From Nitrosotalea sp. (GTDB lineage: Archaea > Halobacteriota > Syntropharchaeia > Alkanophagales > Methanospirareceae), in assembly GCA_020725315.1 (NCBI GenBank), contig DYFG01000001.1, positions 17,015-81,014 of the forward strand: 64,000 bases of DNA, in the 5' to 3' direction. The notes beneath the pieces are model-generated. The model saw nothing but the letters and a program-made list of their open reading frames with translations, had not been told where the DNA came from and ran no database searches. Below, one piece after another: positions 18,990-44,780 of this stretch; the first letter of the stretch is position 1, and every line of letters starts with the position of its first letter. Position numbers and translations under genes: made by a program.

Positions 18990-21829
18990 TTCTTAACCGC
19001 TTCACGAATCTGTGCCAGCCGAGAATCACCAATTCCCTTAATCGAAAGAAGTTCTGCATCAGACGCTTGCGACACCTGAAAGATATGGGTGTAATTCCGC
19101 CCCAAAATCGTAATTACTTCTTCCGGCAGGTCTAGCTGGTCAATCTTTGCAGTATGAACGTCCTTCTGAGCAGACGGCTCTTTGAGAACTTCGTTAGTTG
19201 GCGCTATAGGGGCCTCTTCCTGTTTAATGGTAACTGTTTGTGCAGGTCTGTGAGGCTGCTCCTCTGCCAAAACCAAATCCGGCGAAGACGTGAGCCATTC
19301 TACATCTTCAGGAAATACATTAATGAGTGTATCAACCCCACCAATCCGATACGTAACCCCCCTGTGTGATCGAGAAGGAATACGCCGAAATTGTTTTTGC
19401 TTGCCTACATAACGTAGTGTAACCATCGAATCCCCCGATACTACAGACATAGTTTTAATAGTTGTACTTTTAGGAACAACCACAGTGGACTTCTTTCCAC
19501 CACAGCTTTTGCACATATCATTTCCTTTTAACACATCAGAAATTAAATTAGCAAATTTATTACGTACATATTGTACCAAAGATGATGATTTTTCAAAATT
19601 ATCCTCGCGCCGCATCCCGCTTTTCATGTTGTAGTAGAATAGTGGAGAGGCAATTCTTGTACCACAAATGCCCCTCTCCAACAGGGAAAGATGGAAAATC
19701 CAATCTTCCCAACCGGGAGCCTTTTGATCAAACCCCACTGCTTGCACATCTGCCGTTCTGTAAATGCCCGTAATAGCAGAAATGCTTTTACGAACTAGCC
19801 GTTCAGAACTCCACTCTTCAGACGGTTGTTTAACTAATGTGCCGTTATTATCTTTGTATAGCCAGTCAGAATAGTACCAACCACAATTACTCCCCTCTAT
19901 AGCAGCCAGGAAAATGTCTATTGCTTGTGGTTCTAATAGATCATCAGCATCCAAGAAAACAATATATTTCCCTCTTGCTGCCATAATCCCCTCATTACGA
20001 GCTTCGGCTACCCCACTGAGTTTGCCCTTATCAATAAGGGTCACAAAAGGAAACCCATTTAAATAATAGTCTAAAGGCTCTCCGGTATCATTAACAACTA
20101 TTACTTCCCATTCTTCATTGGTTTGGGCCAGCAGACTATCCAAAGCCCCCTGCAAATAAGGACCATGCTTAGGTCCAACAGGGATTACAACCGATACTTT
20201 TGGATCAGAGTAGGCGGCTATTGGATAGCCAAAACCTTCATACTCAGTTGCTCCGGCAGGCATCAGTAAATCATTCTTACGCCAGGGAAACCAAGCCGTC
20301 CAATCCTCTCCCTGATTACTGTTACTTAAAGACTCTCTACGAATCCTATACAACAAGGTAGGATTTGAAGTAACCTGCTTTGCAGTACAGTTATATGAAA
20401 GTGCCCTCGTCCAAAAATCCGCATCTTCTACCCCGGTTCTAATTCTCCGCCGATACCCCCCAACAATCTCCCATACCTTACGACGATACATACTAGAATA
20501 CATCAACTGGTTACGCCGATTTAGTTGTTGTCGCAGACTTGTAGTAGCAGGGGGCCATTGTGAAACAAATGTCTTTCCTGTTTCATCAAACACCTGCATA
20601 GCCCCATATGCAATAGAGAGGGAACGATCCTCGTCAAGTGCCTTAGAAAGAATTTTAACCGCACCAGGAGCAAGACGATCATCGGCGTCTAAGGGTAGAA
20701 TATATTTTCCTTTTGCTGCACGAATACCTATATTCCTGGCTTCTGCTACATGAACATTTTGTTCTAACGCAATTAAACGAATCTTATCTTTATAAGACTC
20801 TATAATTTCTAATGAGTTATCCGTAGAAGCATCATCCACTACAATCACTTCCCGATCCTCTTGTTCTAGAGCAGAATCAATAGCCTCTCCTACAAACTTT
20901 CCGAGGTTGTGATTGGTAATGATGATGGAAGTTTTGACTTCCGGTTTGTTGCTTATAGCTTCTTCGTACACAGTTCCATATTCTAAAGCAACGTCCTTCC
21001 ACTGATAACGATCTATAACTACCTGCCGAGCCGCTGCTCCTAGTCTTTCACGATGTTCGTAACAATATCTAATACCACGAATCATATCTCCGAAGGAGTC
21101 TGCTACATAGCCCGTTTCTTTGTGGACAATTACCTCAGCAGTTCCCCCATCATTCCATGTCAGTACAGGTACCCCACAAGCCATTGCTTCCAACACACCG
21201 AAACAAGGGCCACCTGTTTCTTTGGCAGTGGCGAGATAAACTGCTGCCCCTTGTACCAGCCTCTTCATTTCTTGTGGAGTCTGTTTGCCAACTACTTTAA
21301 CATTAGGGGCCTTATTTCCAAACGTAGTAACAAAAGTAGTTCCTGGAAAATGAGTTGCTAAGTCATTTACGATCTTTGGATCGCAAGCTATATCTGCCCT
21401 AGCTTTATTCCACAACACATAGCGCCCATTCTCTCCTGGTACCCACTCATCTGTATCTATGCCATGATGAACCAACCGAGGAGAGAATAAGAAATTCCTC
21501 TCTATGGCATACTGTACCCAACGAGAAGGGACCGTTACCAAGTCTGCCATACGGAAAGCATCAATGATACTTCTATTTAAATGTGCGGTCCACCTTGCCC
21601 ATCCCGGTTGATCTTTCGTCCAGTATAGTCCATGATTGCTTAGAACAATAGGAATATCTTTTGGATAAGAAGCTGGAAAGTTTGCTATATGAACATTTAG
21701 TACATCTGCTTTAAACGGATCATCAACTACCTCAATTCCCACACGCGGGAGCCAAGTGTGCTGTCCTTGTATGACACGATAAATACCGTCATTACCGTTC
21801 GGTATAGAGGGGGAAATATAAACCTTCAT
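18977..21829 (-). CDS. multi-domain glycosyltransferase: GT4-like N-domain, two GT2 domains, C-terminal HhH-like tail
   Basis: GT4 motif ETGGPCFGVLEAMACGVPVL. First GT2: IIITNHN..EVIVVDDASTDNS..LPLDADD. Second GT2: VSVVIPVG..EVIVVNDTGE..FLDADD. C-terminal LLSIKGIGDSRLAQI. Confidence 0.8.
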   Translation of the reverse strand: MKVYISPSIPNGNDGIYRVIQGQHTWLPRVGIEVVDDPFKADVLNVHIANFPASYPKDIPIVLSNHGLYWTKDQPGWARWTAHLNRSIIDAFRMADLVTVPSRWVQYAIERNFLFSPRLVHHGIDTDEWVPGENGRYVLWNKARADIACDPKIVNDLATHFPGTTFVTTFGNKAPNVKVVGKQTPQEMKRLVQGAAVYLATAKETGGPCFGVLEAMACGVPVLTWNDGGTAEVIVHKETGYVADSFGDMIRGIRYCYEHRERLGAAARQVVIDRYQWKDVALEYGTVYEEAISNKPEVKTSIIITNHNLGKFVGEAIDSALEQEDREVIVVDDASTDNSLEIIESYKDKIRLIALEQNVHVAEARNIGIRAAKGKYILPLDADDRLAPGAVKILSKALDEDRSLSIAYGAMQVFDETGKTFVSQWPPATTSLRQQLNRRNQLMYSSMYRRKVWEIVGGYRRRIRTGVEDADFWTRALSYNCTAKQVTSNPTLLYRIRRESLSNSNQGEDWTAWFPWRKNDLLMPAGATEYEGFGYPIAAYSDPKVSVVIPVGPKHGPYLQGALDSLLAQTNEEWEVIVVNDTGEPLDYYLNGFPFVTLIDKGKLSGVAEARNEGIMAARGKYIVFLDADDLLEPQAIDIFLAAIEGSNCGWYYSDWLYKDNNGTLVKQPSEEWSSERLVRKSISAITGIYRTADVQAVGFDQKAPGWEDWIFHLSLLERGICGTRIASPLFYYNMKSGMRREDNFEKSSSLVQYVRNKFANLISDVLKGNDMCKSCGGKKSTVVVPKSTTIKTMSVVSGDSMVTLRYVGKQKQFRRIPSRSHRGVTYRIGGVDTLINVFPEDVEWLTSSPDLVLAEEQPHRPAQTVTIKQEEAPIAPTNEVLKEPSAQKDVHTAKIDQLDLPEEVITILGRNYTHIFQVSQASDAELLSIKGIGDSRLAQIREAVKKWNR

Positions 21830-21831
21830 AG

Positions 21832-22518
21832 CTAGCCTACATCGGGAGCGACAGAGTTAAGCGAATAGTCCATACCTATGTTCTTAAAGGGAGAACATTG
21901 AAAATGAAAGGGCATATTACCAGGCCACAAGATTTCGGGTGCGTTATGCGTGTCGTTATACCGTTTGCACATTTCTAGTTCTTCTTCACCAGGAGAGACA
22001 CCTTCTTGATGGTATCCCACGCTGTTGTAAAACCGTTCATGCCGGAAAGAACACTGACCGGAATAGACATAGACACCTGATCCTTGTTCTAACTTTAGGT
22101 ATGTCATGCTACTATACCCAACAAACGACGCTTTCATATCCGTAGACAGGTATCCACAACGAATTATACCAACAGACGGCTGTGTTAACAAAGTGTCTAC
22201 ATAAGGATCAACATTAAGCGGCTCTACTAATACCCAATCATCTTCTGTCATAAAGACTATTGGCGAAACTAAAAACGCCTGCTTTAGTGCTAGGTTCTTC
22301 GATACACCCACCCCACGACGATTCGCATTTGTAACAATAACCCTCTCTTGTGTGTCTATCAAAGAGGTTAGCTGATCGACATACCCATCAGGACTACCAT
22401 CATCAGCAATAATCCATACCCGGTTCCCATATTTTAGGTTCTCTTTCAAAGAGAGCAAAGTTTGGGTAGCTGTGTGTAACCGATTATATGTTGTGATAAT
22501 AATGCTTAGAGGTTCCAT
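21832..22518 (-). CDS. family 2 glycosyltransferase
   Basis: SIIITTYNR ... WIIADDGSPDGY ... TEDD. Confidence 0.7.
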   Translation of the reverse strand: MEPLSIIITTYNRLHTATQTLLSLKENLKYGNRVWIIADDGSPDGYVDQLTSLIDTQERVIVTNANRRGVGVSKNLALKQAFLVSPIVFMTEDDWVLVEPLNVDPYVDTLLTQPSVGIIRCGYLSTDMKASFVGYSSMTYLKLEQGSGVYVYSGQCSFRHERFYNSVGYHQEGVSPGEEELEMCKRYNDTHNAPEILWPGNMPFHFQCSPFKNIGMDYSLNSVAPDVG

Positions 22519-24579
22519 CTATACTCCATATAAAGCGTGTGTCGTGTCCAACATCTCTAGCAGTTCTTTGGCAGACAAAAACCTGCTAGGTTTGTCGCTG
22601 GTATACGAAAACGGCGCACTCTCGTTCCTAAATGAAGACGTGGGTGGGTGGATAAGATAGAAATTACCCTTATCTTCTGTATAAAAGGATTCCGCCTCGC
22701 TAACCATTCCTTCATGGATTTTTTCGCCAGGACGCAAACCTATATCCACTATTGCTAAATCTTGTGCGAACTCCTTAGCAAAATCAATCATTAAAATACT
22801 AGGAGCCTTTGGAACCAATATAACTCCCGGCTCGGTTTGTAGGGACATAAGGACTTGATTAATGGCTTCATCTATTGACAGAAAGAAACGAGTCATACGA
22901 CGATCTGTGATTGTAATCGGTCCACCAACCTTAGCCTGATGTTCCCACAAAACTGCCACAGACTGATTAGAAGCCAGCACGTTACCATAACGAGTAATAT
23001 GGAAACTGGTAGCTCCATACTTATTAGCATCTTGAAACACATACTCTACCATCTTCTTGCCAACACCATAGGCGTTTTCAGGCGAACAATTATGTACTAC
23101 CACACTACCCGACACAAAAGTATGCGTATCTTCTACGTCAATACAATATACATCTCTTGATGGAGCTTTATATTCATTAAGAATGGGAGTATCTATATAA
23201 CGTTCTGCTGTTCCTAAATCCCAAAAAGTAGGATCGTAATCTATATAGTCAATTTTATTAGACATTTCAGGCAATATTCCTGGTCTAATAAAATTGAATA
23301 GAGATTGAGTACCCTCAACAGTAAATCTAAGTTCAGGATAATATTTTCCGGCTACTTTAACTAATAAATAATTACACTCAAATCCCCTGTTTGTTAAAAA
23401 CTCACATAACCAAATAACTTCTTCCTCAGTAAACCCATGAGTAGCTAGACGCGCAGATGGTCTAGAGTTCCCCCCGTTATTATGACTAATACATCCATCA
23501 TCCATAAACCAAGCTGCCATAAGATAGGGAGAAAAATATTTTTCTAGTAAATGCTTGGGAACTATTTTCGCTTTATCCGAATAAAATGCCTCTCTTAGGT
23601 TTCCTAGTGTTGCATAGGCTCTGGAAGAGGATTTACAGAAATTATTTTTTCCCTTTTTACTTCTCGTTTTAATTTCGCTAAAAGTAAACCCCCGCAGGGC
23701 TGCTGTTTTCGTTTCTAGCCACTGTCGTTGTCTCTCCGAATGACCAATAGTCAGCCGACTGCGGCGACTTTGTGTTAGGCTGCTATCGCCTAATAAAGTA
23801 CCTACAAGTAGTCCATACTGTTTAAAGTTTGGTTCTGGTTCATTAGTTATTATAAAATGATTGTCTGTTAAACTACCGGCAGGAATCCATCCTTTGGTTG
23901 TCAGAATAAGATGATCTTCTGTAACTATAGTACCAGACAACTTACCCACATGCAGATATGCTCTACGGTAAGTAAGTCTATATCTTTTCCTGCCATCCAA
24001 TTTATTTTTGTACCACCCCACCACTCGCCCTAACTTCTGTTCCCCCGTATTAGGATCAATAGTAACTACTTCGCCATCATAACGTTCTTTAACCAACTCG
24101 CCTATTGGCTTAGAGGTTCCGTCTGCCAACAAAACCCTAGCGTGCCAATCAAGACAGGCTTTGTCGGTGCTTGTCGTAACGACCTGAGACACTCCCATAT
24201 CAATTGCGGCCTCAACAACCTGCTGAGAACCGTAGATATTTGTTTCTATCGTAGCAGCAATGTTGTTTTGAGCAGAGGGTACCTGTTTATAGGCAGCAAA
24301 GTGCATTACTATGTCAACACCGCGCATGGCCCGTTTGAGATCATTATAACGAGTTATGTCTCCCAACACATATTGGTGTTCAGGAAACTTTTGACGAAGG
24401 ATGCTTTGCTTTGTTTCGTCACGCGAAAAAATTACAAACTCTGCTCCCCAAGAATTTCGTCGGGCGCGAGTAAGCACAGCCTTTCCGAGAGTACCCGTTC
24501 CGCCAGTAATTAGTATTTTTTTACCTTCCAACATCTTCCCGTAAGGATCAGAATTTGTTATCCAGGTTTCCATCATCAT
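22519..24579 (-). CDS. NAD-dependent NDP-sugar 4,6-dehydratase/epimerase (CapD/PseB-like) interrupted by an intein
   Basis: Rossmann motif ILITGGTGTLGKAV. Catalytic region STDKA then intein then CSPENAYGVGKK, corresponding to STDKAxNPxNxYGxTK. 686 aa in total, of which 356 aa is intein. Confidence 0.75.
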   Translation of the reverse strand: MMMETWITNSDPYGKMLEGKKILITGGTGTLGKAVLTRARRNSWGAEFVIFSRDETKQSILRQKFPEHQYVLGDITRYNDLKRAMRGVDIVMHFAAYKQVPSAQNNIAATIETNIYGSQQVVEAAIDMGVSQVVTTSTDKACLDWHARVLLADGTSKPIGELVKERYDGEVVTIDPNTGEQKLGRVVGWYKNKLDGRKRYRLTYRRAYLHVGKLSGTIVTEDHLILTTKGWIPAGSLTDNHFIITNEPEPNFKQYGLLVGTLLGDSSLTQSRRSRLTIGHSERQRQWLETKTAALRGFTFSEIKTRSKKGKNNFCKSSSRAYATLGNLREAFYSDKAKIVPKHLLEKYFSPYLMAAWFMDDGCISHNNGGNSRPSARLATHGFTEEEVIWLCEFLTNRGFECNYLLVKVAGKYYPELRFTVEGTQSLFNFIRPGILPEMSNKIDYIDYDPTFWDLGTAERYIDTPILNEYKAPSRDVYCIDVEDTHTFVSGSVVVHNCSPENAYGVGKKMVEYVFQDANKYGATSFHITRYGNVLASNQSVAVLWEHQAKVGGPITITDRRMTRFFLSIDEAINQVLMSLQTEPGVILVPKAPSILMIDFAKEFAQDLAIVDIGLRPGEKIHEGMVSEAESFYTEDKGNFYLIHPPTSSFRNESAPFSYTSDKPSRFLSAKELLEMLDTTHALYGV
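23089..24156 (-). mobile_element. intein with LAGLIDADG homing endonuclease inside the dehydratase gene
   Basis: Starts CLDWHARVLLADG (block A) and ends VVVHN followed by +1 Cys. LAGLIDADG-type motifs LLVGTLLGDSSL and LMAAWFMDDGCIS. Confidence 0.6.
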
Positions 24580-27752: not shown

Positions 27753-30155
27753 TTAACTCTCGCTGTAGGATACCCATGCGCTAATGAGAGATTGCAGCGT
27801 CGCAAAATGTGCGTCTGCAATTGCCTGTTTCGTGCGAAGGTCCGCGATTGATGAGACAACCACCGCTCTAATCCCATCAATCGCCTCGCGGATTTGGTCA
27901 GTAGTGACACCCAGGTTGGTGCTAAGGTCCAAGCTGGTCCATTGGGTCGGATTAGTGCCAGTGAGTTCTTTGGGTGACATAAAATAACTGTTCGTTACCG
28001 CAGAGGTCACAGAGCCGGTTAAAGAGCCGATTAGCGTATCGGTTATTGTCTGATTGCTGCCAGTGCCTGCCAGGACCGCGATCCCGGTACTCGACCATAC
28101 AATATTTTTTTGAAAGGTGCCGTTGTCCCCATCAATGACCATGCCACACAGCACGTCGCCCAGGAAGTTTCCTCGCACCTTACCATAGGTAGGATCGTGC
28201 CAAAAATGGATAGCATATCCCTCTCCGCCGATGAAGATATTTTCTTCGATCAGCGGCTCATCTTCCGCCTGGGTTATGTCATGATTAGTGTAATAAAGCG
28301 AGTGGTAATGGACTCCGCTACCGCACTCAATGAAACGGTTGCGATAGATATGGACGCGGGTAAAGTCTGAACCAAGACACTCCCAAAAACCGAAGAAGGT
28401 GTTGTACCGGACTACGCAATCAGGCTTTACATGCACGTGCTGGTTGGGGGTTGCAGGTGCAGCAGCCTTAGCTCCCCCGATCCAACACCCTTCCAGCGTC
28501 GCCCCGCTATTTACAACTACAGTGGGCGCATAGCCATCAGTGCGAGTGATTATGGGCTTTGCTCCTGCTGCTGCCTTGAGCGTGCCGCCCGCTGGAATGT
28601 TAATATGATAGCCGTTTACCGTAGTGGCCGGGTCGAGGGCATAGATTCCGTCGGCAAGCTCTACGATTCCCCCTGCCGCCAATTCCGCATAAGGGAAAAC
28701 TTGATCGCCAGTCACGGACATCGGCTCCATCAAGACGGGGTCGGGCTGGGAGACGCCGCTACCGGGGCCAAGATAAAGCTGTGGGTTAGCGTAGGCCGAA
28801 GACGAGATCGGATAACTTTGCAACCCTTCAGGTGATGTTTCTGCCGGGTATACCGCCGCGATTGCCGTTGCGGTATCCTGGTGCGACACATCCAAGATAG
28901 CACCGCGCGACGTCACCGTTTTTCCTGAGCGCGATAAAAAGCGGTGTTGTGTGCCTTCGCACATCACGTCGATGCCGGTCGGCGTCCCCACGTTCAGCAC
29001 ATCGGTCCATCCAGCAGGCACAATTTCAGAGCCGCCAACAACTTGTCGCACACAATAATCCCAGGCCGTATTTGTCTCGTTGCGCCGTATAATGGCTCTC
29101 CACTTATTATCTTGATCACCAATGCGGTAGTCGATGGATACTTCTTCGCCTGCCGATGGGGCGTCATTGAGTACAAACGTAAAACGATGTATTGCGTCGG
29201 CTGACGCTTCATACTGCGATCCAGACACTGGCTCGGTTTCGTAGACGGTGGCAAGCCCGGCGTCCGAATTGAACGGCGCTCCAAGAGCAAGCACCGCAAT
29301 TGAATCCATCTCGAATTTGTCGTTGGTAGATGTTACTCTGGTATACACATCTCCAAGGTTGTAATCATAGTATCGCGGTTTAATTAAGGTGAGTTTTGAG
29401 GTGGTGCAATTAATGTATAATACCAAAGTGTCGGTATAAATCACCGCAAACCGACGCTGGTCGCTGTAATAGCCAGAGAAAGTCTCTAAAAAGGAGAGAT
29501 AGGATGGTGAGATACGGTCTACCGGCACTCCCAACTTTTCGTTGCTAAATCCAACGCGCATGTTAGACCCGCCAGCGGTATAGTTCGTGCTAAATAATAG
29601 AGCTAACCCAGGGACAAATGGGGTTGGGCTTGCGGTAGTCACTGATATGTTGGTGGTGGCAGTTTTCGCCAGTTTGCCATTGGCAATCGAGAGGTCAGGC
29701 GCTCCCGCATCGGAAAATTCTAAGACGCCGGGACCGGGTTCACTTGTGCGTGGTGTCGTTATCGGAGCCGCATCAGCGGTTGTAAACTCATCACGCAAAA
29801 TATAGAGATCGACGGCAAGGCTAAACTGAGTTGCCGCCTTGTTGGCATTACCAGCGAGATCGGTACACACCGCAGCAGGAATGTCTACGGTGACTATGCC
29901 AACATCAATCGTTGGTGTGATCGTCGCTGTCCAGACGGTGTTATCTGCCGTGACAAAGTTTGACATCACGCAGTTGCCGAGCTTCACATCGCTGTACGCA
30001 AATCCGGTAACTTCATCGTCAAACGTGATAATAATCGTAAACGGCCCTTTGGTGGGCGCAACCGCATCGCTCGTAATCGTTACGGTCGGCCCGCTCACCC
30101 CCTGCGCCCCCCGGAACGCCGGATTGTTCAGCAGCAAACCCATCATTCCCGGCAT
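27753..30155 (-). CDS. large virion-associated protein: N-terminal Ig-like region, C-terminal right-handed parallel beta-helix (pectate-lyase fold); putative depolymerase or fibre
   Basis: 800 aa. C-terminal PbH1-like repeats NIFIGGEGYAIHFWHD..GNFLGDVLCGMVIDGDNGTFQKNIVWSSTGIAV. GC-rich relative to the backbone. Confidence 0.5.
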   Translation of the reverse strand: MPGMMGLLLNNPAFRGAQGVSGPTVTITSDAVAPTKGPFTIIITFDDEVTGFAYSDVKLGNCVMSNFVTADNTVWTATITPTIDVGIVTVDIPAAVCTDLAGNANKAATQFSLAVDLYILRDEFTTADAAPITTPRTSEPGPGVLEFSDAGAPDLSIANGKLAKTATTNISVTTASPTPFVPGLALLFSTNYTAGGSNMRVGFSNEKLGVPVDRISPSYLSFLETFSGYYSDQRRFAVIYTDTLVLYINCTTSKLTLIKPRYYDYNLGDVYTRVTSTNDKFEMDSIAVLALGAPFNSDAGLATVYETEPVSGSQYEASADAIHRFTFVLNDAPSAGEEVSIDYRIGDQDNKWRAIIRRNETNTAWDYCVRQVVGGSEIVPAGWTDVLNVGTPTGIDVMCEGTQHRFLSRSGKTVTSRGAILDVSHQDTATAIAAVYPAETSPEGLQSYPISSSAYANPQLYLGPGSGVSQPDPVLMEPMSVTGDQVFPYAELAAGGIVELADGIYALDPATTVNGYHINIPAGGTLKAAAGAKPIITRTDGYAPTVVVNSGATLEGCWIGGAKAAAPATPNQHVHVKPDCVVRYNTFFGFWECLGSDFTRVHIYRNRFIECGSGVHYHSLYYTNHDITQAEDEPLIEENIFIGGEGYAIHFWHDPTYGKVRGNFLGDVLCGMVIDGDNGTFQKNIVWSSTGIAVLAGTGSNQTITDTLIGSLTGSVTSAVTNSYFMSPKELTGTNPTQWTSLDLSTNLGVTTDQIREAIDGIRAVVVSSIADLRTKQAIADAHFATLQSLISAWVSYSES

Positions 30156-34445: not shown

Positions 34446-35178
34446 GAACTTCTACCTTACTAAATGTATATGGGCTTTCTGCTTCATGATCTAAACAAAC
34501 AACACAATTTTCCGCCGAAGGATTTACGTTCCAATAAACGTAATAATTATCCTCATCTTCATCTACTTCCAACCAGCATTTGCACAACGATTTTCCAAGA
34601 CAGTCGTCACCTGGGAGATAAGGCATCATAAAAGTAATATCGACAGGAATAGTGCCCGCTATAAACGGTGCTCTGGCATACCCATACAGAGAAGAACGCC
34701 ACTGTAGACGACCACTATAAATTACTCCGCTAGACAACGCCTCACGAATGTCTGCCTCAAATCCATCGAAGTATTCATATTCCCTCTCTAAACGCTGTTC
34801 TAAGATTTCCCTGTGCCGTTCAGTAAATTCCTCTCCTTGCAAACCCAACAGCATAAGATCAGAAAAATGGATACGCAGACGATCTCTAAACCGCTCCGAA
34901 AATTCCCTTATTGATAAGGCTCCCGACAAAACAGCGACCAGCAATTCCTGAAATTCTTGGGATGCCTCTTCACAAAGTTCTTCGTATTCCTGTTCGTCCC
35001 GCTCATCATACTGCTTCTTTCCTTTACCAGCAGCATGTATGCACGCGAAAATAGCCTCTTCTTCAGACCCGCCATCTCTCAAAACCGCATTAGCGGCTCT
35101 GATACAACGTTTCTTTTCTGAGACTGTCCAATTCTTAGCAACTTTTGGCACGTAATTGGGATAACGATAGGGACTCAT
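34429..35178 (-). CDS. hypothetical head morphogenesis protein with C-terminal Cys cluster
   Basis: 249 aa, directly after portal. C-terminal CxxC...C..C (CLGKSLCKCW ... CVVC). Confidence 0.3.
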   Translation of the reverse strand: MSPYRYPNYVPKVAKNWTVSEKKRCIRAANAVLRDGGSEEEAIFACIHAAGKGKKQYDERDEQEYEELCEEASQEFQELLVAVLSGALSIREFSERFRDRLRIHFSDLMLLGLQGEEFTERHREILEQRLEREYEYFDGFEADIREALSSGVIYSGRLQWRSSLYGYARAPFIAGTIPVDITFMMPYLPGDDCLGKSLCKCWLEVDEDEDNYYVYWNVNPSAENCVVCLDHEAESPYTFSKVEVHGLTT

Positions 35179-37736
35179 TTCGTAACCAACTCACTTACTA
35201 TCCTACGCGCTTCTTGTATGTCTTTAGCAGTTATTTTTTTGTAGCCCTTCCTCTCAGTATGAGAATCAATGCCACCAACAATCTGATCTGTTCCAAAGGT
35301 AATTTCACTCGGCTGCTCCGTAGGCTGCGAAGATAAACGAGATTCGATCTCAGGTATCATCCATTCTGGTATATCACCTGACTCAACCGCCAACTGCCTT
35401 GCAGCAATCGCATCAATCTCTCCACTACGAACTAACAAAGCACGTTCTTTAGCTCTAATAAATCTCGCCTCTGCCCGTTCCCTGTCAGACCGAATATCCT
35501 GTTCCTTAAACTCAAACCGAACATTATAAGGAAGATGAGAATTTATCTTATCTTCCAACATCGTCATAATCAGGGCAGGGCCTTTACCCCTCGTCTTGAG
35601 ATGGAGAATTTCAGACTGTCCAGATGATCCAAGATTACCGGACATGAGTGGGGCAAACTCTTGATAATCCACACCAAAAGCAAGCGCCAACTGTGCTATA
35701 TACCATTTAAAGGTTGTGTCTTCGTTAAACGAATCTGGTAATGTTGCCAGATCAATGTGAACGTGACTGAGTGGGTGAGTAGGATCAACCCCAGGAATAA
35801 TCACTGGTTGCGAAAAACGATATAAACCACGATTAAGGTTTTGTTCTTCTGCCAGCAACACCGCATCATCAATGTTTGATTTTGATACGCCACCGATAAT
35901 ATCAATGGCGCGAGTAAAGTTGCCGCCTACCTTTTCTTTCTTATAGATGGAAATGTCTCTAAGAATTTGGGCGGCGAGTAGGGCACGGGATGTAGCACAA
36001 TATTGCATGCCATACATTTCTTCGATGGGAGAAGGAAACTCTTCTAACGTTTCTACTCTCCACCAGGGCATTGCATGCTCTCTACCATAAAAGTCTCTAT
36101 AAATAACTGGATATTCTGGATCACCAGTTCGCCAACAACGTCCTGAGTCCAGGTGTGCAAAATTAATCACAGGAGAAGTAGGGTTATTATTATCAACCCT
36201 AATAATTTCCCAAAAGGCGCCATTATCCTGTGTGTTGTGAGAAACAAGATTTCCAGCAATAAAATTGCGAGTTTTGTCTACTCCAATATGATAGGTGGTT
36301 TCTACAACCTTCCCGGTTGCTCCTATATAGTCTTTCTGTTCTATTTTTTCAATTTCATCAAAGTAGATTTTTGCAGGTTCCAACTCCCACACAGAAGGAT
36401 TAAATGGTTTTGTGTGTTGTCCCATCTTATACTGCATAGACGGAATTATATATTCGCTGATATAGGACACCACTGCACGATAACCATCGGCAGTGAAACG
36501 AATCCTATAATACTTGTCCTTTATCGGTTGCACCTTACAAGAAAAACCACGCGAGGTAAGTTCCTCAGCAAGCCATTCAACATCTTCTTTTTCAAATCCA
36601 TCTGTGCATAAAACAGCGTGTTCTGATTGATTGTTTGCTGTGGTAAGTGTTCTCTGGCACGCCCCGTCATCCATAAACCATATTGCAAGCATACGGGGAG
36701 AGAAGTATTTCACAAAGTCTTCCCTATTAACTCGCTTCTTCCCGTCTGGATACCATCTATCAAACCAAGGAGATAGCCCCAAAGAAGCTAGCGAGTTTAC
36801 TCCTATGATGTGTGCTCCTTTTTCTGTGAGCCTAGAATTTTGCCCTGTCCAACCAAACTCTTTTAACAAAGACTTCTTAAATTCTAGATAATCAGACTGA
36901 TCAACAGAGTGTCTAAAGCGGATAATTGCTCTCTTGGTAAAACGAGACATACTCATATCCCCAAGCAACCCGCCCACAAGTACCTCTGCCTGTTCTTCTG
37001 AAGGAACAAGATCAGAAGTACCTATCTTATCAGTAGGTAGCAAGTCTTTAGCTTGTACCCAACCACGATCAGTTAGCATGGGATGATCTTCAGTTAAAAA
37101 GATTCCTCCTTGCTTTCCTCCATGACCATGATTAGTTGCTAGTTTAGTAGACAGGAAATACCATTTACGATTCCCTAGTGGCGTAGAATGCCATTCAGTA
37201 ACCATCTGTTCTACCAAAGTTCCGTCAGAACCAACGCTAATCACAGGACCAGGATCACGATCCTTTACCATTCTTGCTATCGTCTTTGTTTTTCCTAGTC
37301 GATCCCCCCCTAGCTTAACTTTAGTATTACCAGCCAAGCAATAGAGGTCAATACAAGTTTTAAGAATTAAATCGTACCACCCCTTACCACGATTTGATCG
37401 CTGGATAATCTCAGTAACCTTGTTAATTGTATTTTTAGGTCGCGGTTTAGTCTTGTCTGTGCCTTCAATATGCCACGCAAAACTGGCGTTACGAATTGAA
37501 ACACCATAAACCGCGCTTGCCAAAAGGGACTCTGTGTGCCAAAATTCCCGTAATTCCCTATCTCGTTTAACAGGATCTTTGCCCCAGGGCGTAATTGAAT
37601 CGGCAGTTGTCGCCAGTTGTAAAATCAAGGGGCCAACACGCGGCGTCCTGTTATTAGGCGGCGTCTCAACAACAGAGTTTTCAAAAAGCTCTGGTAACAA
37701 TTCTTTTTCTTCTACAAAATCACTACCGACTGCCAT
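35175..37736 (-). CDS. portal protein interrupted by an intein
   Basis: 853-aa gene immediately downstream of, and overlapping, the large terminase gene. The roughly 484-aa extein is portal-sized. The intein is at residues 133-501. Confidence 0.6.
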   Translation of the reverse strand: MAVGSDFVEEKELLPELFENSVVETPPNNRTPRVGPLILQLATTADSITPWGKDPVKRDRELREFWHTESLLASAVYGVSIRNASFAWHIEGTDKTKPRPKNTINKVTEIIQRSNRGKGWYDLILKTCIDLYCLAGNTKVKLGGDRLGKTKTIARMVKDRDPGPVISVGSDGTLVEQMVTEWHSTPLGNRKWYFLSTKLATNHGHGGKQGGIFLTEDHPMLTDRGWVQAKDLLPTDKIGTSDLVPSEEQAEVLVGGLLGDMSMSRFTKRAIIRFRHSVDQSDYLEFKKSLLKEFGWTGQNSRLTEKGAHIIGVNSLASLGLSPWFDRWYPDGKKRVNREDFVKYFSPRMLAIWFMDDGACQRTLTTANNQSEHAVLCTDGFEKEDVEWLAEELTSRGFSCKVQPIKDKYYRIRFTADGYRAVVSYISEYIIPSMQYKMGQHTKPFNPSVWELEPAKIYFDEIEKIEQKDYIGATGKVVETTYHIGVDKTRNFIAGNLVSHNTQDNGAFWEIIRVDNNNPTSPVINFAHLDSGRCWRTGDPEYPVIYRDFYGREHAMPWWRVETLEEFPSPIEEMYGMQYCATSRALLAAQILRDISIYKKEKVGGNFTRAIDIIGGVSKSNIDDAVLLAEEQNLNRGLYRFSQPVIIPGVDPTHPLSHVHIDLATLPDSFNEDTTFKWYIAQLALAFGVDYQEFAPLMSGNLGSSGQSEILHLKTRGKGPALIMTMLEDKINSHLPYNVRFEFKEQDIRSDRERAEARFIRAKERALLVRSGEIDAIAARQLAVESGDIPEWMIPEIESRLSSQPTEQPSEITFGTDQIVGGIDSHTERKGYKKITAKDIQEARRIVSELVTK
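36234..37340 (-). mobile_element. intein with LAGLIDADG homing endonuclease in the portal gene
   Basis: Block A CLAGNTKVKL. Ends NLVSHN with +1 Thr. Motifs LVGGLLGDMSMS and MLAIWFMDDGACQ. Confidence 0.55.
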
Positions 37737-40476
37737 TTATGTATTTCTCCCCCAACTCAGGGAATTTCTGCCGGACTATTTGTGAGAAGGTTTCCAACTC
37801 AATTTCACCCTTTGCTAACATCTGTAGTAAATCTTCCTTCTCAAATTCCCGATTGTCTAATTCCAATTCCATACATTTGTAAGCAGCCATCGACAAAGCA
37901 ACTGCCGCGTCAATCTTGGCTTCTGGTGACAGCTTTTCTAGGCGTCTTTGCCGTCCCGAAATTACTGCCCCGGCTTGCCGAATATGCTGATATAGCGTAT
38001 CTTCTTCTCTCCCAGGACCCCCCACATCCCCGATTGTAGTGGTTCGATTCCAAGTCAGTTGTCGGTGCATCACCATGTCATAAAGCTGTTTGTCAGCAAT
38101 ACCTCGCGCCGTATTTTGAGTGAAAGGATCGAACCAACCAAACCCATCCTTACGATAGTCTTGAACAAGTTTTGCCATCTGGTACGGATCATAAACCCAA
38201 CATATAACATTCCATCGGGAAGCCCATTCACGAATGGTATTACCAACTGTCTGTTCTTGGTCTATGTTACCACCTAACTTTTTAGGATTAAAAATCTTTA
38301 CAGCCCGAACCGCAACACAAGTATCAGGGTTGATTGGATCGCGAGTTACAGCAACCATCGCCGCTAAGTCATTTGATACACTCATATCTATTGCAACCAC
38401 AACAGGAGTCTTATCTCCCTGCTTAAGAACGGGCAAAGAAGGACTTTCACAATTATCCCACCATTGAGCCTCGATAAACGCACCCTTCGCACTCACCCAA
38501 CGATTACGATGGATACGTTCAAACTCCTCTGGTTCTAAGGTATTTTTCTGTTCTTCATAGTAATTAGTACCTAATTGCCAGGGCATCCGAGGTTCGGTGT
38601 CCCAATACATAAACATACGAGAAGGCGCATGAGTATAAACCACTGGACCTTCTTCAGTATCAAGATAGGAAAAATCTGGATGGGGAGTTCCTTCTTTCTT
38701 TCCTGTGTTATAAAGAGATTCTAAAAGAATGGACACTCCGGTATATCCTGCATAGGATTCAACCCACTGCATTGCATATCCGTACAAAGTGGGCGGAACC
38801 GTAAGTTCTGTCCATAGCTGGCGTTTCTTAGGTGTATCAAATCCCCACAACTCACTGTTGCCCTGGATATGTACTTTTCCGTGTCGTCTAACTACTACAG
38901 TTTTGTTAGGTACTGTAGGACAGTGGATAATCCCTTCATAGTCTATCTTTTGCCAACGATCTTTTTTAATGTGAAGTATACGGCTCCCATCCCCCATTGG
39001 CTTAACACTAACTGAATATAAAGGCCTTCCCCATCGCCTATCTTGATAGGTAGTTACTGTTACATATCTGCCCCGCCTAGCATAAATTTCTAACAAATCG
39101 TCTCGCAATTTAGGAGAGTTTGTGCTATAAACAATATGCCCGTATTGAGTTACAGCATCACCAGTCTTGTATCCATCCCCACGCCAATAAGACTCTAATA
39201 ACACGTCTAAATATTCATCTGGAAGTTCTTTAATCCATGCCGGTATATACTTTTCGTGTGCCAGCCCAAATTGCTTTAAATGTTTCGCTATACGAGTATC
39301 ATAAAACACTAAAGCATCTGTACCCTTCCACACACGCGGAACATATCCGAGATCGGAGATTAGCGTTTTCAATTCTTCGTAATAAGGAGATACACTGCTC
39401 TGTGCTAACAACACGGTATCGCCCTTATGGGTACATCCCTCAGACAAATACCACCCCAAAAACTTAAGGTACAGTTTTACAGGAATCTCAAGACTCGGCC
39501 TACGCTTAGTGCCTGGAATAGTCACAAATTCTGGTACATCTACTGGTTTCCTTTTTAGTCCCAAAGATTCTACTCGCATACCATACACCCCGGCTTCTAT
39601 GGCGGATTCTACGGAGCGCTTTTCAAATTGGGCTTTATTAAGGGCTATAGAACTAGAACCAAATTTACCATACAGCCTATGATTAGGAGACACGCACAAA
39701 CTGTATCTGCTAGATTCTAATAGATACATAGGGCCTCCATACTGTGAGACATTTATATGAGTGGGATGTTGGTACTCTAGATACCCATCCGAACGTAAAG
39801 TTAAAAACTGATCATCCATAGAATATTGATCATAGCGTTTCCACCCATCCCTAGTAAGTATCTCTGTGTCTTCGTCAAAACAAAAGACACTTAGCGTAGG
39901 TTCACCACCAGCCTCACCTGCCGCGTCAACCGGAACAGCCTCAATCTTACAAAAATTAGGAAGGGTAACCTCGTATTCATACGGGTTTATATCCTTAAAG
40001 GGGCCTTGTTGCTGTCTATGGAGTCTATAATTTTGTTTTATAGGCGCATAGATACGGTCGTTCGCCTGTTTACCATCGTTTGCTACACACGCAATAAACC
40101 CATAAGGACTATGATGAGCCACATAAGTAGCTACTGCCGCAGCAACCGCAGACTTTCCGCTTTTCTTTGGGGCACTATAAACTACCAAAGCATACTTAAA
40201 TGTCCCATCAGGATTCCGTGATAGGGCTTCATTAATCAAATGCTTTTGGTGATCGGTTAATTGAATCGGGCCAGCGGGAAGTATTTCGCCAGTCTTAGGG
40301 TTTCGAGGTCGAGGTACCCAAAAATATCGTTCAATCCAATCAGCCGGAAGAATTGCTTCCTGATTCTGTTCTTGCACTAAGTTGCGTGACAACTGCCGTA
40401 GTGCCTGATCCAGCAGCGTCTTCGAGTCGCCTTGAGATGTAATCGACAACTGCTTCCCTAACGTGTGCATCATCAA
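37723..40476 (-). CDS. terminase large subunit interrupted by an intein at the Walker B region
   Basis: Walker A VVYSAPKKSGKSAVAAAV. The intein starts at C199 (TLSVF then CFDEDTEILTRDGW). 917 aa including a roughly 342-aa intein. Lies upstream of portal. Confidence 0.8.
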   Translation of the reverse strand: MMMHTLGKQLSITSQGDSKTLLDQALRQLSRNLVQEQNQEAILPADWIERYFWVPRPRNPKTGEILPAGPIQLTDHQKHLINEALSRNPDGTFKYALVVYSAPKKSGKSAVAAAVATYVAHHSPYGFIACVANDGKQANDRIYAPIKQNYRLHRQQQGPFKDINPYEYEVTLPNFCKIEAVPVDAAGEAGGEPTLSVFCFDEDTEILTRDGWKRYDQYSMDDQFLTLRSDGYLEYQHPTHINVSQYGGPMYLLESSRYSLCVSPNHRLYGKFGSSSIALNKAQFEKRSVESAIEAGVYGMRVESLGLKRKPVDVPEFVTIPGTKRRPSLEIPVKLYLKFLGWYLSEGCTHKGDTVLLAQSSVSPYYEELKTLISDLGYVPRVWKGTDALVFYDTRIAKHLKQFGLAHEKYIPAWIKELPDEYLDVLLESYWRGDGYKTGDAVTQYGHIVYSTNSPKLRDDLLEIYARRGRYVTVTTYQDRRWGRPLYSVSVKPMGDGSRILHIKKDRWQKIDYEGIIHCPTVPNKTVVVRRHGKVHIQGNSELWGFDTPKKRQLWTELTVPPTLYGYAMQWVESYAGYTGVSILLESLYNTGKKEGTPHPDFSYLDTEEGPVVYTHAPSRMFMYWDTEPRMPWQLGTNYYEEQKNTLEPEEFERIHRNRWVSAKGAFIEAQWWDNCESPSLPVLKQGDKTPVVVAIDMSVSNDLAAMVAVTRDPINPDTCVAVRAVKIFNPKKLGGNIDQEQTVGNTIREWASRWNVICWVYDPYQMAKLVQDYRKDGFGWFDPFTQNTARGIADKQLYDMVMHRQLTWNRTTTIGDVGGPGREEDTLYQHIRQAGAVISGRQRRLEKLSPEAKIDAAVALSMAAYKCMELELDNREFEKEDLLQMLAKGEIELETFSQIVRQKFPELGEKYINGSR
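38857..39882 (-). mobile_element. intein in the terminase large subunit gene (homing-endonuclease-like insert; non-canonical C-terminal GN-S junction inferred)
   Basis: Block A CFDEDTEILT. Candidate end VHIQGN then Ser. Internal LKFLGWYLSEG and WRGDGYKTGD motifs. The exact C-terminal boundary is uncertain. Confidence 0.45.
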
Positions 40477-41544: not shown

Positions 41545-42615
41545 TTACAAACCATTCAACAACCAATGTCTAGCATGGTTAATATTACGAGTCGCATAGA
41601 CCTGATGATTATTTGGATCGAAAACTAAGATAGGCCACTCAAAGACTCCGACACTCCAATTTTTGATCGTATAGGGATCAGGACCAGTCTTAGCAGTTCC
41701 AACCTGTATTTTCCAAACAAACGGCGATGGACGATTGCCTGCTTCTACTTCCCACACATAATGAGTATCTTCCGCAAAGCCGTAAGTGTGCTTGTCTCCC
41801 TGCACTATTACGTCAGCCATCGGAAAATTAAACAGCAGGGCGCGGGTATGTGGGTGCATCTTATTGTAGATAGAACTACCAGGAAACTCATGCGCCATAG
41901 CTATCTGATAGGTCTGAGAACCTACATGAAGCTTTACATAAGCTTGACCATCAAAGAAGGGAACATCATGCTCTAGGTAGATTCGCTTAACAGGGTTGAC
42001 CCCTGTCTTTCGACTATCCCAATCCCCGCCATGCTGAGAAGCTACGCCCCACAAAAGTTTTTGCTTAGAAGCTAGCCGATCCAACATCCCCGTTAGCAAC
42101 TGCCACTGTTCGGGAAGAGTATAGATCATCTCCATCGAAGCACGTTTATCAAAGAAGTCAGGACGAAATCCCTCTATATCATCCCCCAACGGCCCCCAAA
42201 ACAAGTTGGGAGTATCAAGAACCTGATCCATCAAGGCACGTATTTGTTTGTAGTAGGTATATCGACCGCCCAAATGGGCACAGGAAGGAAACAGGATTCC
42301 TACTGGTTTGTCTGTTTGGAACGTAATTTCTTCGTGTGTCAGTATCGGATCAAGCGTATTAAAATACCTAGCATGTTCATCTGCCCGATCCAACAACTCC
42401 TCGAATGTATAGATTTCCTCTGGACTTTCAATTTCCCTAAAATTTTTGTACTTAATTACTCTACCAGACGACTCTAGAACGCGGCCTTTCCATCTCCGCG
42501 CCGTTCGTGGGCTTGGAGCTAAACCTTTATTAAACAAACTTGTACCGGATACTTCTGGATTTCGTTTTACATATTCGATAAATGTATCTGGAATGTGCTG
42601 CATCATTAGCTCCAA
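41545..42615 (-). CDS. hypothetical protein, weak calcineurin-like metallophosphoesterase motif order
   Basis: 356 aa. Ordered motifs SCAHLGG ... GPLGDDIEG ... AMAHEF ... QGDKHTYG loosely resemble DxH / GDxxD / GNHE / GHxH. Weak. Confidence 0.3.
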   Translation of the reverse strand: MELMMQHIPDTFIEYVKRNPEVSGTSLFNKGLAPSPRTARRWKGRVLESSGRVIKYKNFREIESPEEIYTFEELLDRADEHARYFNTLDPILTHEEITFQTDKPVGILFPSCAHLGGRYTYYKQIRALMDQVLDTPNLFWGPLGDDIEGFRPDFFDKRASMEMIYTLPEQWQLLTGMLDRLASKQKLLWGVASQHGGDWDSRKTGVNPVKRIYLEHDVPFFDGQAYVKLHVGSQTYQIAMAHEFPGSSIYNKMHPHTRALLFNFPMADVIVQGDKHTYGFAEDTHYVWEVEAGNRPSPFVWKIQVGTAKTGPDPYTIKNWSVGVFEWPILVFDPNNHQVYATRNINHARHWLLNGL

Positions 42616-43095: not shown

Positions 43096-43448
43096 TGCAC
43101 CGCATCAGACTTTTGGTCAAAGCTTTCTTCTTCGTAGTGCATCACATACTGGTATATCCCTGCTATAGAATACTGCCCATAGTAACTCCCCTGAACACCT
43201 TCCTCTTCAAGCAGCGCATCTAGTACAGATGATTCTACAGCAAACCTCTCGCTAGATAAAAACGAGCCTGAAGGCGGAGACTTGTCCGGCTCAATGTAGT
43301 ACAAACCCCCATCCGGCAAAGTTTTAGGATTCTGCCATACTAATTCAGCAGAAGTATTATTAATCACATACGCAAGTTGTTCTTCAAAATTCATAAGGCT
43401 GATGCCTCTTCTTTTTCTATCAAAATTGTCGTGTGACATATCCTGCAC
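43032..43448 (-). CDS. hypothetical protein
   Basis: 138-aa ORF adjacent to the IS insertion. Confidence 0.3.
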   Translation of the reverse strand: MQDMSHDNFDRKRRGISLMNFEEQLAYVINNTSAELVWQNPKTLPDGGLYYIEPDKSPPSGSFLSSERFAVESSVLDALLEEEGVQGSYYGQYSIAGIYQYVMHYEEESFDQKSDAVHWLMDQLERFSIIVQSFGVEK

Positions 43449-44780
43449 GGTGACTGCTCCCCACGGCTAAAGCCGGGGGCTTCTAGGACCGGAGTCCAGG
43501 CTCGCCAGCCCGCGAGCCAAAATGTTCAGAGATGCATTGAGATCGCGGTCCAGTTTCAGGCCGCAGTAAGGACAGTCGTGGACACGCACACTCAAGTCTT
43601 TCGGAACCACCGCGCCGCAGCCGGAGCATTCTTGCGTTGTGCCTCTGGGGTTAACGCGCAGCACAGCACGACCGGCACTTTCAGCCTTGTACGTGGTGAA
43701 CTGCACGAACTGGCCCCAGGCCACGTCCGCGATATTCCGGTTGACAACCCGGTTTCCGTTGGACTGCATGTCCGCGATGTCCAACTTCTCAAAGACGATC
43801 AGGCCGAAGCGGTTGACGAGCTTGCGGCTCTCCTGGTGCGCGAAGTCGGCGCGCCGGTTGGTGGCGCGCTGGTAGGCATGGTTGAGCGCGCGCAGCACCT
43901 TGCGGCGCTCCGGCGAGCCTTTAGCGAACTGTTCTTTCTTGCGCTGCAAGCGGGCGATGTCCGCCGCATCGCGTTTCATCCAGCACTGGCGCGGGATACT
44001 GTCGCCGGTACTCAGCATGGCGAACGTCTTCAGGCCGAGATCCACGCCCACCACTTCAGGCGACGGGGGCAGAGGCGCGGCGTCTACTTCGCACGAAAAG
44101 CAGGCGTACCAGTTGCCTACGCTATCGCGCCGGATGATGACTGTTTTGGGTGTGCCTTCCAGGGGGCGATGCAGCTTGATTTTCACGGCTCCGATTTTCG
44201 AGAGCGTGAGCCGGTTACCGTCCAACTTCACCCCATTACCACACTGCGGATAGGTGAAACTGTCGTACCAGCCACGTCCCTTGAAGCGCGGGTAGCCGGG
44301 CTTCTCACCTGCCTTGACGCGGCGAAAGAATGCCTGGAACGCCAGATCGACGCGTGTGCACGCTTCTTGAAGCGACTGCGAAAAGGCGTTATTGAGAAAT
44401 GGCTGCTCGGCTTTCCAGCCGGGGATCAGCTTAATCGTATCGAAGCGCGTCAGCGTTTCGCGGTTAATGTCCCAGGCATCGCGGCGCACTTCAAGCGTCG
44501 TGTTGTAAACCCACCGACAAGCATCCAATGCGCGCAGCAAGGCGGTGCGTTGGGCAGAAGTAGGAAAGAGGCGGTACTTGTAGGTCAATCGCATAGCCCG
44601 ATTATACCATTTATGCTACAGGTTCACAAACATATGGCGCACCTTATATCCCCCTGCCTTCAGGCAGAGGTTTTACGGCGCTTTTCCGATAAAGCTGAGT
44701 TCTCCCCAGGAGCATCATCACAACACGCCCAACAGGAAGCCCCACACACCGGACACTCTTCTACCACATCACAACTCAAC
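43440..44780 (-). mobile_element. IS200/IS605-family insertion carrying only tnpB (IS1341-like), GC-rich
   Basis: GC is about 60% or more against a roughly 45% backbone. Right-end hairpin near 43455-43480 (GGCTAAAGCCGGGGGCTTC). Left-end-side hairpin CCTGCCTTCAGGCAGAGG near 44655. Confidence 0.65.
43467..44594 (-). CDS. tnpB: TnpB (OrfB_IS605) RNA-guided endonuclease-family transposase accessory protein
   Basis: N-terminus MRLTYKYRLFPTSAQRTALLRALDACRWVYN. C-terminal zinc finger CSGCGAVVPKD...CPYCGLKLDRDLNASLNI. Confidence 0.9.
   Translation of the reverse strand: MRLTYKYRLFPTSAQRTALLRALDACRWVYNTTLEVRRDAWDINRETLTRFDTIKLIPGWKAEQPFLNNAFSQSLQEACTRVDLAFQAFFRRVKAGEKPGYPRFKGRGWYDSFTYPQCGNGVKLDGNRLTLSKIGAVKIKLHRPLEGTPKTVIIRRDSVGNWYACFSCEVDAAPLPPSPEVVGVDLGLKTFAMLSTGDSIPRQCWMKRDAADIARLQRKKEQFAKGSPERRKVLRALNHAYQRATNRRADFAHQESRKLVNRFGLIVFEKLDIADMQSNGNRVVNRNIADVAWGQFVQFTTYKAESAGRAVLRVNPRGTTQECSGCGAVVPKDLSVRVHDCPYCGLKLDRDLNASLNILARGLASLDSGPRSPRL

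Follow-up and report, generated by a model that had tools for sequence, protein, structure and literature searches.

The 64,000-nt stretch of contig DYFG01000001.1 (assembly GCA_020725315.1, positions 17,015 to 81,014), hereafter called the window, is part of the genome of an uncultured tailed phage; a matching contig of 82 kb (Ga0246236_1000155) is present in the JGI metagenome 3300029893. Three genes of this phage, which encode the large subunit of the terminase (TerL), a probable portal protein, and a sugar dehydratase of the PseB/FlaA1 type, are each interrupted by an in-frame insert. Characteristic splice residues in all three inserts and natural insert-free alleles of TerL and portal identify them as bona fide inteins that are predicted to splice (probability about 0.9). 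The distribution of the inteins among closely related phages suggests that at least those of TerL and portal are mobile in the phage population or were so until very recently (probability about 0.6).

Each insert represents one bifunctional class-1 intein with a nested LAGLIDADG endonuclease. Three such inteins had already been proposed in a preliminary description of the same DNA, which was prepared from the sequence without database searches and assigned them to the region 35175–40476. This region comprises two long open reading frames (ORFs) on the minus strand that overlap by 14 nt (end of TerL and portal). The dehydratase ORF lies outside it, and a search with all three inteins against the window (tblastn) yielded no further related inteins.

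Insertion boundaries and empty alleles

The junctions of the inteins in TerL and portal are exact to the codon because natural empty alleles of both genes are uninterrupted at the respective positions. The intein-free TerL (P0004; 541 amino acids [aa]) is 98% identical to the protein of the window and reads EPTLSVFSELWGFDTP (TLSVFSELWGF) without a break, whereas the TerL of the window leaves the N-extein after TLSVF, enters an intein that starts with CFDEDTEILTRDGW (CFDEDTEILT) and ends with KVHIQGN, and then resumes with SELWGF. The unusual Gly-Asn end followed by Ser, which the preliminary description had already recognized, is therefore real. The intein-free portal protein (P0095) is 96% identical and has a length of 484 aa, which corresponds exactly to the 853 codons of the interrupted gene minus the 369 of the insert; it reads CIDLYTADNGAFW (DLYTADNG), and the junctions in the window (CIDLY/CLAGNTKVKL...GNLVSHN/TQDNGAFW; slashes mark the splice sites) are those that had been predicted. 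Comparison with intein-free homologs, which the same description had recommended for TerL and portal, thus located the exact insertion points.

The junctions of the dehydratase intein (TSTDKA/CLDWHARV...SVVVHN/CSPENAYG) are supported by homology. The spliced protein aligns to PseB/FlaA1 of Helicobacter pylori (2GN4) without a gap across the junction (STDKAANPINLYG), and intein-free homologs read STDKAVNP, although the available empty ones are distant (≤45% identity). Together with the separate matches of the insert to an endonuclease family and of its flanks to PseB-like dehydratases (see below), this bears out the third intein of the preliminary description.

Both kinds of alleles recur: P0001, P0004, P0091, P0095, and P0142 have 6, 24, 20, 18, and 9 members, respectively, and the dehydratase P0142 (684 aa) is 97% identical to the protein of the window. 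Given the intact reading frames of TerL and portal, both of which are essential genes, we infer that the inteins are removed from the products. The coordinates of genes, inteins, and motifs are compiled in Table 1. The ORF of TerL (37723–40476, minus strand) extends over 917 codons from a TTG at 40476, but the true start is probably the GTG at 40377, judging from the N terminus of P0004 (MQEQNQ) and the presence of this codon, which leaves an open frame of 884 codons. The likely start of the dehydratase is the third ATG, at 24573.

Table 1. Intein-bearing genes of the phage, their inteins, and selected motifs (positions refer to the window; slash, insertion point)
Feature	Position	Strand	Description
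TerL gene	37723..40377	−	HK97-like, divergent ATPase domain, one intein inside
TerL intein	38857..39882	−	342 aa; Cys1 ... Gly-Asn, then +1 Ser; Hint and PI-SceI/VMA-type LAGLIDADG endonuclease
TerL intein, LAGLIDADG motif 1	39436..39468	−	LKFLGWYLSEG, acidic residue E148
TerL intein, LAGLIDADG motif 2	39172..39210	−	LDVLLESYWRGDG (including LLESYWRGDG), acidic residue D236
TerL site b, unoccupied in the window	38538..38575	−	LGTNYY/EEQK; related intein here in close relatives
Probable portal gene	35175..37736	−	853 codons, one intein, directly downstream of TerL
Portal intein	36234..37340	−	369 aa; Cys1 ... His-Asn, then +1 Thr; RecA-intein-like Hint and I-SceI-type (LAGLIDADG_2) endonuclease
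PseB/FlaA1-like UDP-GlcNAc 4,6-dehydratase gene	22519..24579	−	Short-chain dehydrogenase fold, one intein
Dehydratase intein	23089..24156	−	356 aa; Cys1 ... His-Asn, then +1 Cys; inserted after STDKA

Splicing and endonuclease domains

All three inteins start with the nucleophile Cys1 (CFDED in TerL, CLAGN in portal, CLDWH in the dehydratase) and possess the (T/S)xxH motif of block B, which is SPNH in TerL and TEDH in the other two. They end with Asn, after which the C-extein begins with Ser (TerL), Thr (portal), or Cys (dehydratase) as the +1 residue. The penultimate His of block G (G:6) is present in the inteins of portal (SHN) and dehydratase (VHN). Two LAGLIDADG motifs with intact acidic residues are found in each of the inteins, in agreement with the blocks noted in the preliminary description.

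The inteins of portal and dehydratase are readily classified by sequence. Both match the endonuclease family PF03161 (E = 2.6e-27 and 6.8e-24, respectively) and, among sequences in the PDB, I-SceI-type enzymes (E = 3e-12 to 6e-8). The portal intein also matches the Hint domain of PI-MtuI, the RecA intein of Mycobacterium tuberculosis (E = 2e-3), and the splicing domain of the same protein is matched by the dehydratase intein. Profile searches for intein domains, which had been proposed as a check, gave a mixed result: TIGR01443 (intein_Cterm) matches the dehydratase intein with a score of 24.2, which is above its cut-off of 15.6, whereas the matches of PF14890 (Intein_splicing) to the two inteins stay below threshold and the TerL intein has no match. 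Orthologs of the portal intein do carry PF14890.

The identity of the TerL intein had to be established from its predicted fold because the sequence libraries (Pfam and PDB) all missed this insert. The AlphaFold (AF2) model, which has a mean predicted local distance difference test score (pLDDT) of 93.2 and a predicted template modeling score (pTM) of 0.91, was compared with the PDB using Foldseek; the 15 best matches are inteins that bear endonucleases, namely TliVMA, PhoVMA, PI-SceI, PI-TkoII, and PI-PfuI (E = 2.8e-15 to 3e-8; TM-score up to 0.67). An alignment of the insert with 22 related inserts retrieved by the homolog search (23 members in total) shows invariant residues at positions C1, T10, G13, W14, H68, E148, G149, D236, G237, C321, and N326, which include the acidic residues of both LAGLIDADG motifs. 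Most relatives have TPNH at block B, of which the His is invariant, and one ortholog (P0016) carries the endonuclease family PF14528.

By analogy with inteins of this class, each gene would be translated as a precursor from which the Hint domain excises itself. Cys1 would form a thioester at the N-terminal junction, which would then be attacked by the +1 residue (Ser in TerL, Thr in portal, Cys in the dehydratase); cyclization of the terminal Asn would release the intein, and the remaining ester would be rearranged into a peptide bond. Splicing would restore the Walker B motif of TerL (TLSVF-SE), the conserved motif of portal (DLY-TxDNGAFW), and the catalytic stretch of the PseB-like dehydratase (STDKA-CxPxNxYG). 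The nested LAGLIDADG endonuclease would cut intein-free alleles in mixed infections, and during the ensuing repair the vacant site would receive a copy of the intein along with a few adjoining bases.

Intein mobility in the phage population

There are four closely related haplotypes that differ in the occupancy of the intein sites. The window (JGI 3300029893) carries the TerL intein at the position between F165 and S166 (site a; P0004 numbering) and also the portal intein. A contig from the ENA (ERZ27256727) with about 98% nucleotide identity is empty in both genes, and a contig from SRR29973910 with 99% identity has an empty TerL but stops short of the portal site. A fourth contig (L001; SRR33243636), which is about 95% identical, contains the portal intein; its TerL is empty at site a and bears an intein of 349 aa at a second site, b (P0005; PWQIPEYY/C...FWTGN/SEQR), that is related to the intein at site a. 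The absence of inteins from almost identical phages supports the view that those of TerL and portal were recently gained or lost.

The occupancy of alternative sites extends to other members of the family. Among 88 TerL matches with E < 1e-60, 16 have an intein at site a, five at site b, and two at site c (KRxLW/TE), which is located 15 residues downstream of site a; none has more than one. The inteins at the three sites align as a single family.

The nucleotide sequences at the junctions provide further, indirect indications. The sequence of the window at TerL site a is TTT/AGT GAG TTG, whereas all three empty alleles, including that of the 5%-diverged L001, read TTC/TCT GAA CTC. These are six synonymous differences within 10 nt, among them a switch between the two codon families of serine (AGT versus TCT), at a background divergence of only 1.7% (binomial P = 5e-9). 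At the portal junction, both intein-bearing haplotypes share three synonymous differences from the empty allele (−4, −1, and +3). Site b of TerL is marked by a patch of approximately 38 nt with clustered differences and a 3-nt indel, which in the nucleotide alignment differs in all four haplotypes, whereas the flanks within the aligned stretch of 140 nt are nearly identical. In the empty alleles, site b is followed by Glu, Ala, or Val at the +1 position, residues that are unable to serve as nucleophiles in splicing. Co-conversion and variation of the target around the recognition site of a homing endonuclease would be expected to leave such patterns.

Several observations weigh against a very recent spread of the inteins. 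The initial assumption that the whole cluster of differences at the portal junction is linked to the intein had to be abandoned, because L001 shows that only three of the eight differences track its presence; the other five (+4 to +12, including an exchange of Gln and Ala) are specific to the window. The portal inteins of the window and L001 are 97.4% identical, which is similar to the identity of their exteins (95.0–96.7%) and fits a vertical descent in these two phages but not a fresh invasion. In the case of the dehydratase, no near-identical intein-free allele was found among the homolog matches, so that nothing points to a mobile dehydratase intein in this lineage. Moreover, presence/absence polymorphism could be explained by precise loss as well as by gain.

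These observations would also be accommodated if the inteins still splice but have become passive passengers, with endonucleases that are inactive or have run out of targets, and if the present pattern arose by ordinary recombination between lineages and an occasional precise deletion. Decay does occur: the site-a TerL intein of P0015 has shrunk to 210 aa and lost most of its endonuclease domain, consistent with the cycle of invasion, decay, and loss that is usual for inteins. We nevertheless consider a purely passive state the less likely explanation. The acidic residues of the LAGLIDADG motifs are not only intact in all three inteins but invariant across the TerL intein family, genomes with 98–99% identity differ by the clean presence or absence of an intein at two loci, and a single intein family occupies three alternative sites in the TerL of close relatives. 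The cluster of six differences at TerL site a could hardly have arisen by point mutation; a short tract co-converted from the donor would yield exactly such a cluster. Homing currently in progress, with active endonucleases, is thus inferred for this population, as the preliminary description had suspected from the density of inteins alone, and is now suggested by the presence/absence polymorphism among contigs with 95–99% identity and the synonymous clusters at the junctions.

It is conceivable, if rather improbable, that the ATPase domain of TerL is the arena of a continuing conflict with one intein family that attacks sites a, b, and c, and that the variability of site b reflects the escape of a natural population from its endonuclease. 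The four near-identical haplotypes (TerL empty or occupied at site a or site b; portal empty or occupied) represent a clean natural data set, and their junction sequences predict the targets of the endonucleases.

Splicing competence of the TerL intein

The case for splicing is least straightforward in TerL. Its intein has Gly instead of His at the penultimate position, no match to any intein or LAGLIDADG family in Pfam, and no significant sequence match in the PDB (phmmer; best E = 0.14, with no intein listed); even in the portal and dehydratase inteins, the scores of PF14890 (24.4 and 26.1 bits) are below the gathering score of Pfam. All this counts against the interpretation of the inserts as functional inteins. 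Taken at face value, the missing His of block G, the Gly-Asn end, and the lack of a profile match might indicate that the TerL insert is unable to splice and that the window stems from a defective phage or contains a pseudogene.

We consider such a defect very unlikely. The long reading frame is intact, and the identical protein is encoded on two contigs. Sixteen TerL homologs with an orthologous intein have retained Cys1, TPNH, and the +1 Ser, whereas the ends of the intein vary; besides GN, the orthologs at site a (P0006, P0008–P0011, P0013, and P0015) end with GQ, HQ, HN, MN, or YN. The conservation of the catalytic residues despite variable ends indicates a functional family that tolerates variation in block G. 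Inteins that function with Gln at G:7, or with a residue other than His at G:6, have been documented (PMC4031507).

A class 3 mechanism was also considered for the TerL intein, in view of the invariant Cys of block F (C321). Inteins of class 3 are by definition devoid of a nucleophile at the first residue, and among inteins in general only one residue is more common than Cys at position F:4 (PMC4031507). Since Cys1 is invariant as well, the intein was assigned to class 1.

The natural variation of the last two residues could make this family useful for studying the tolerance of the last splicing step. The variable C termini (GN, GQ, HQ, HN) could also render the maturation of TerL slow or conditional, such that splicing times the packaging of DNA; if so, the intein would constitute a post-translational switch on packaging.

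An interpretation of the inserts as ordinary domain insertions specific to this lineage, or as freestanding endonuclease genes fused to their neighbors by an error of assembly or annotation, which the weak or absent scores of intein profiles might suggest, can practically be discarded: they are in frame, free of stop codons, and have canonical terminal residues, with splice residues in all three and the combined fold of a Hint domain and an endonuclease in TerL; they are missing to the codon from alleles with 96–98% identity, which refutes this explanation, and the same architecture is found in separate samples from JGI, ENA, and Logan.

Relationships among the inteins

A comparison of the three inteins for a common origin, which had been suggested in the preliminary description, revealed two lineages. 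The inteins of portal and dehydratase are homologous, with 34% identity over their full length (E = 1e-54); they share a Hint domain that resembles that of RecA inteins and an endonuclease of the I-SceI type. BLAST detected no similarity between the inteins of TerL and portal; the former belongs to a separate lineage, which has an endonuclease of the VMA/PI-SceI type and a Cys at block F but lacks the penultimate His. A common origin of all three was therefore rejected.

The relationship between the inteins of portal and dehydratase does not imply a recent jump between the two genes, because inteins of other host proteins are equally close relatives. Their nearest non-orthologous relatives reside in family 4 uracil-DNA glycosylases (UDGs) and RecA (25–34% identity), and the lineage is represented also in SNF2 and GpA-terminase genes. 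In addition, about 15 portal homologs (40–98% identity of the whole proteins) have an intein at the portal site, as do about 25 dehydratase homologs (27–97% identity) at the dehydratase site. Judging from these sequence relationships, the two inteins are long-established alleles, each specific to its site, within one broad lineage rather than products of a recent duplication in this phage.

Host proteins and insertion sites

Inteins usually insert into conserved functional motifs, and those of the window are no exception. In TerL, the insertion point lies at the C-terminal end of a predicted β-strand (162–166, LSVFS; AF2 model), and the +1 nucleophile is Ser166 itself. Among 28 intein-free TerL homologs, the following E167 is invariant and Ser166 is at least 90% conserved. 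HMMER aligned K70 of the HK97 terminase (SEQRES numbering; K60 in the numbering of the paper) to the Walker A lysine of the family, and a residue 15–16 positions upstream of the HK97 residues D153 and E154 to D151. If the spacing from this anchor is ungapped, S166 and E167 would fall opposite D153 and E154, the Walker B residues of HK97, which places the intein inside the Walker B motif. The preliminary description was thus right about the location at Walker B (the insertion point lies between F165 and S166, the residue that precedes the invariant Glu), but the motif reads hhhhSE and not hhhhDE.

The Ser in place of the canonical Asp is a property of the whole TerL family, whether or not an intein is present (window positions 38854–38856 and 39883–39897). 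This substitution could be the fixed footprint of a long occupancy by inteins.

The identification of TerL itself is based on PHROGs, in which the ORF matches the large terminase family phrog_9 (E = 3.8e-34) in two separate stretches and the intein-free P0004 matches with E = 5.5e-38. The AF2 model of P0004 (pLDDT 87) has the TerL of HK97 (6Z6D) as top fold match in the PDB (E = 2e-20), PF20441 is present in 20 of the 28 homologs, and the Walker A motif (APKKSGKS) is invariant in the intein-free profile. The protein is quite divergent: a Pfam search with the ORF gave no match even at E-values up to 10, a tblastn search against 50,697 deposited phage genomes was negative, and a profile scan of 185,579 species genomes detected only relatives with ≤39% identity, which are scattered over many phyla. 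A distant TerL relative on a contig of a Chitinophagales metagenome-assembled genome (CAYXBK010000024.1, 5001–7328) stands out by the length of its match, which at 2.3 kb exceeds that of the neighboring matches by about 1 kb; this gene may be another interrupted terminase.

The ORF directly following TerL is probably the portal gene, as indicated by its synteny with TerL, the size of the product, and weak profile matches. The intein-free allele matches the portal family phrog_2662 (E = 8.7e-4), and PF04860 (Phage_portal) was detected in one of 16 portal homologs (E = 2.6e-5); sequence and profile searches of the PDB gave no match. The intein splits the most conserved motif of the protein, which comprises the invariant residues T127, C128, D130, D135, N136, and W140. 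Seven of the 16 intein-free homologs (P0102, P0106, P0109, P0112, P0113, P0117, and P0118) are fused to a C-terminal domain of the 2H-phosphoesterase/Acb1-like (anti-CBASS) type, which is absent from the portal protein of the window.

The dehydratase matches PF02719 (Polysacc_synt_2; E = 2e-66) and TIGR03589 (PseB; E = 7.5e-73) in two stretches on either side of the intein, and the spliced protein aligns to 2GN4 with E = 1.7e-58 over residues 13–301. It possesses the nucleotide-binding motif TGGTGTLG (GxxGxxG) and the catalytic stretch STDKA-CSPENAYG, in which the intein separates Asp-Lys from Tyr. The score of the interrupted protein with TIGR03589 (245 bits) is below the equivalog cut-off of 407, and the assignment is therefore to a PseB-like class and not to an exact substrate or product.

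The dehydratase gene adjoins a gene for a protein of 950 aa with three glycosyltransferase domains (one GT4 and two GT2), with which it forms part of the tail and structural module (window positions 18977–24579). In a related phage contig (GCA_040961035.1), an intein-free PseB-like gene directly follows the head genes. It seems that this group of phages makes its own nonulosonic-type sugar.

Neighboring features of the window

Other segments of the window differ from those of close relatives. A gene encoding a Cas12f-like TnpB/IS605-OrfB protein (43467–44594, minus strand) is located in a segment of approximately 1.3 kb (43396–44686) that is missing from L001 and from the ENA contig and appears to have been inserted recently; in L001, a different ORF of 105 aa takes its place. 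A second tnpB gene (58312–59760) lies in a GC-rich patch (0.57) at 58–60 kb. The GC content is also elevated between 26000 and 30200 (0.52–0.54 vs. about 0.44 elsewhere), where an ORF (27753–30155, minus strand) encodes a Big_12-domain protein of 800 aa. L001 has instead a gene for a 451-aa protein and a CBM_5_12 gene, and the block looks like a swapped tail-fiber or host-range cassette. The window also encodes a DNA polymerase of family A (74–1576), a tyrosine integrase (3447–4397), which suggests a temperate lifestyle, a protein resembling DNA-repair exonucleases (41545–42615), and an ArdC-like antirestriction protein or zincin (57188–58192).

Comparison with known inteins

Inteins in the terminases and portal proteins of actinobacteriophages were reportedly described by Kelley et al. 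in 2016. A recent survey of these phages documents LAGLIDADG inteins in TerL, including its nucleotide-binding motifs, and in portal, with a patchy distribution among close relatives that was interpreted as recent local spread, and with polyphyletic groups of TerL inteins (Gosselin, Arsenault and Gogarten 2025; bioRxiv 10.1101/2025.01.02.630785). The phage of the window resembles the actinobacteriophages in the affected genes, the endonuclease type, and the patchiness, but the TerL of the latter belongs to PF04466, whereas that of the window has no tblastn match among the deposited phage genomes; insertion sites and intein lineages may differ as well. The survey lists 19 host proteins, none of which is a sugar dehydratase (10.1101/2025.01.02.630785).

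Cyanophage Mic1 harbors two inteins in a single TerL, one in the ATPase domain and one in the nuclease domain (PMC7156551). It shares with the phage of the window an ATPase domain that is split by an endonuclease-bearing intein and the presence of more than one intein per phage. Unlike in Mic1, an individual TerL of the family found in the window carries a single intein, located at site a, b, or c, and the other two inteins of the window are in other genes.

At the level of the intein itself, the TerL model agrees with the structures of VMA inteins, PI-SceI, PI-PfuI, and PI-TkoII (7QSU, 7QST, 1VDE, 1DQ3, and 2CW7) in that a LAGLIDADG endonuclease with two motifs is nested in a Hint domain, but differs from them in sequence (9–15% identity), the penultimate Gly, and the Cys of block F. 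The inteins of portal and dehydratase resemble PI-MtuI and the UDG and RecA inteins with I-SceI-type (LAGLIDADG_2) endonucleases by sequence, but have different host genes and insertion sites. Inteins that lack the penultimate His or end with Gln are known from ClpP of Chlamydomonas, Pab PolII, and CIV RNR (reviewed in PMC4031507). In contrast to these cases, the TerL inteins vary in their ends within one orthologous family at a single site, and their splicing is predicted from sequence.

Inteins in TerL and portal and phages with multiple inteins have thus been described before, and the general picture of intein distribution does not change. A PseB-type dehydratase intein was not encountered in any paper of the searchable literature, yet it is common among metagenomic proteins, with its site occupied in the homologs mentioned above. 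What is new, at the level of individual members, are the host proteins, the intein in a PseB-type dehydratase, and, for this terminase family, the polymorphism of an intein that occupies alternative sites in TerL.

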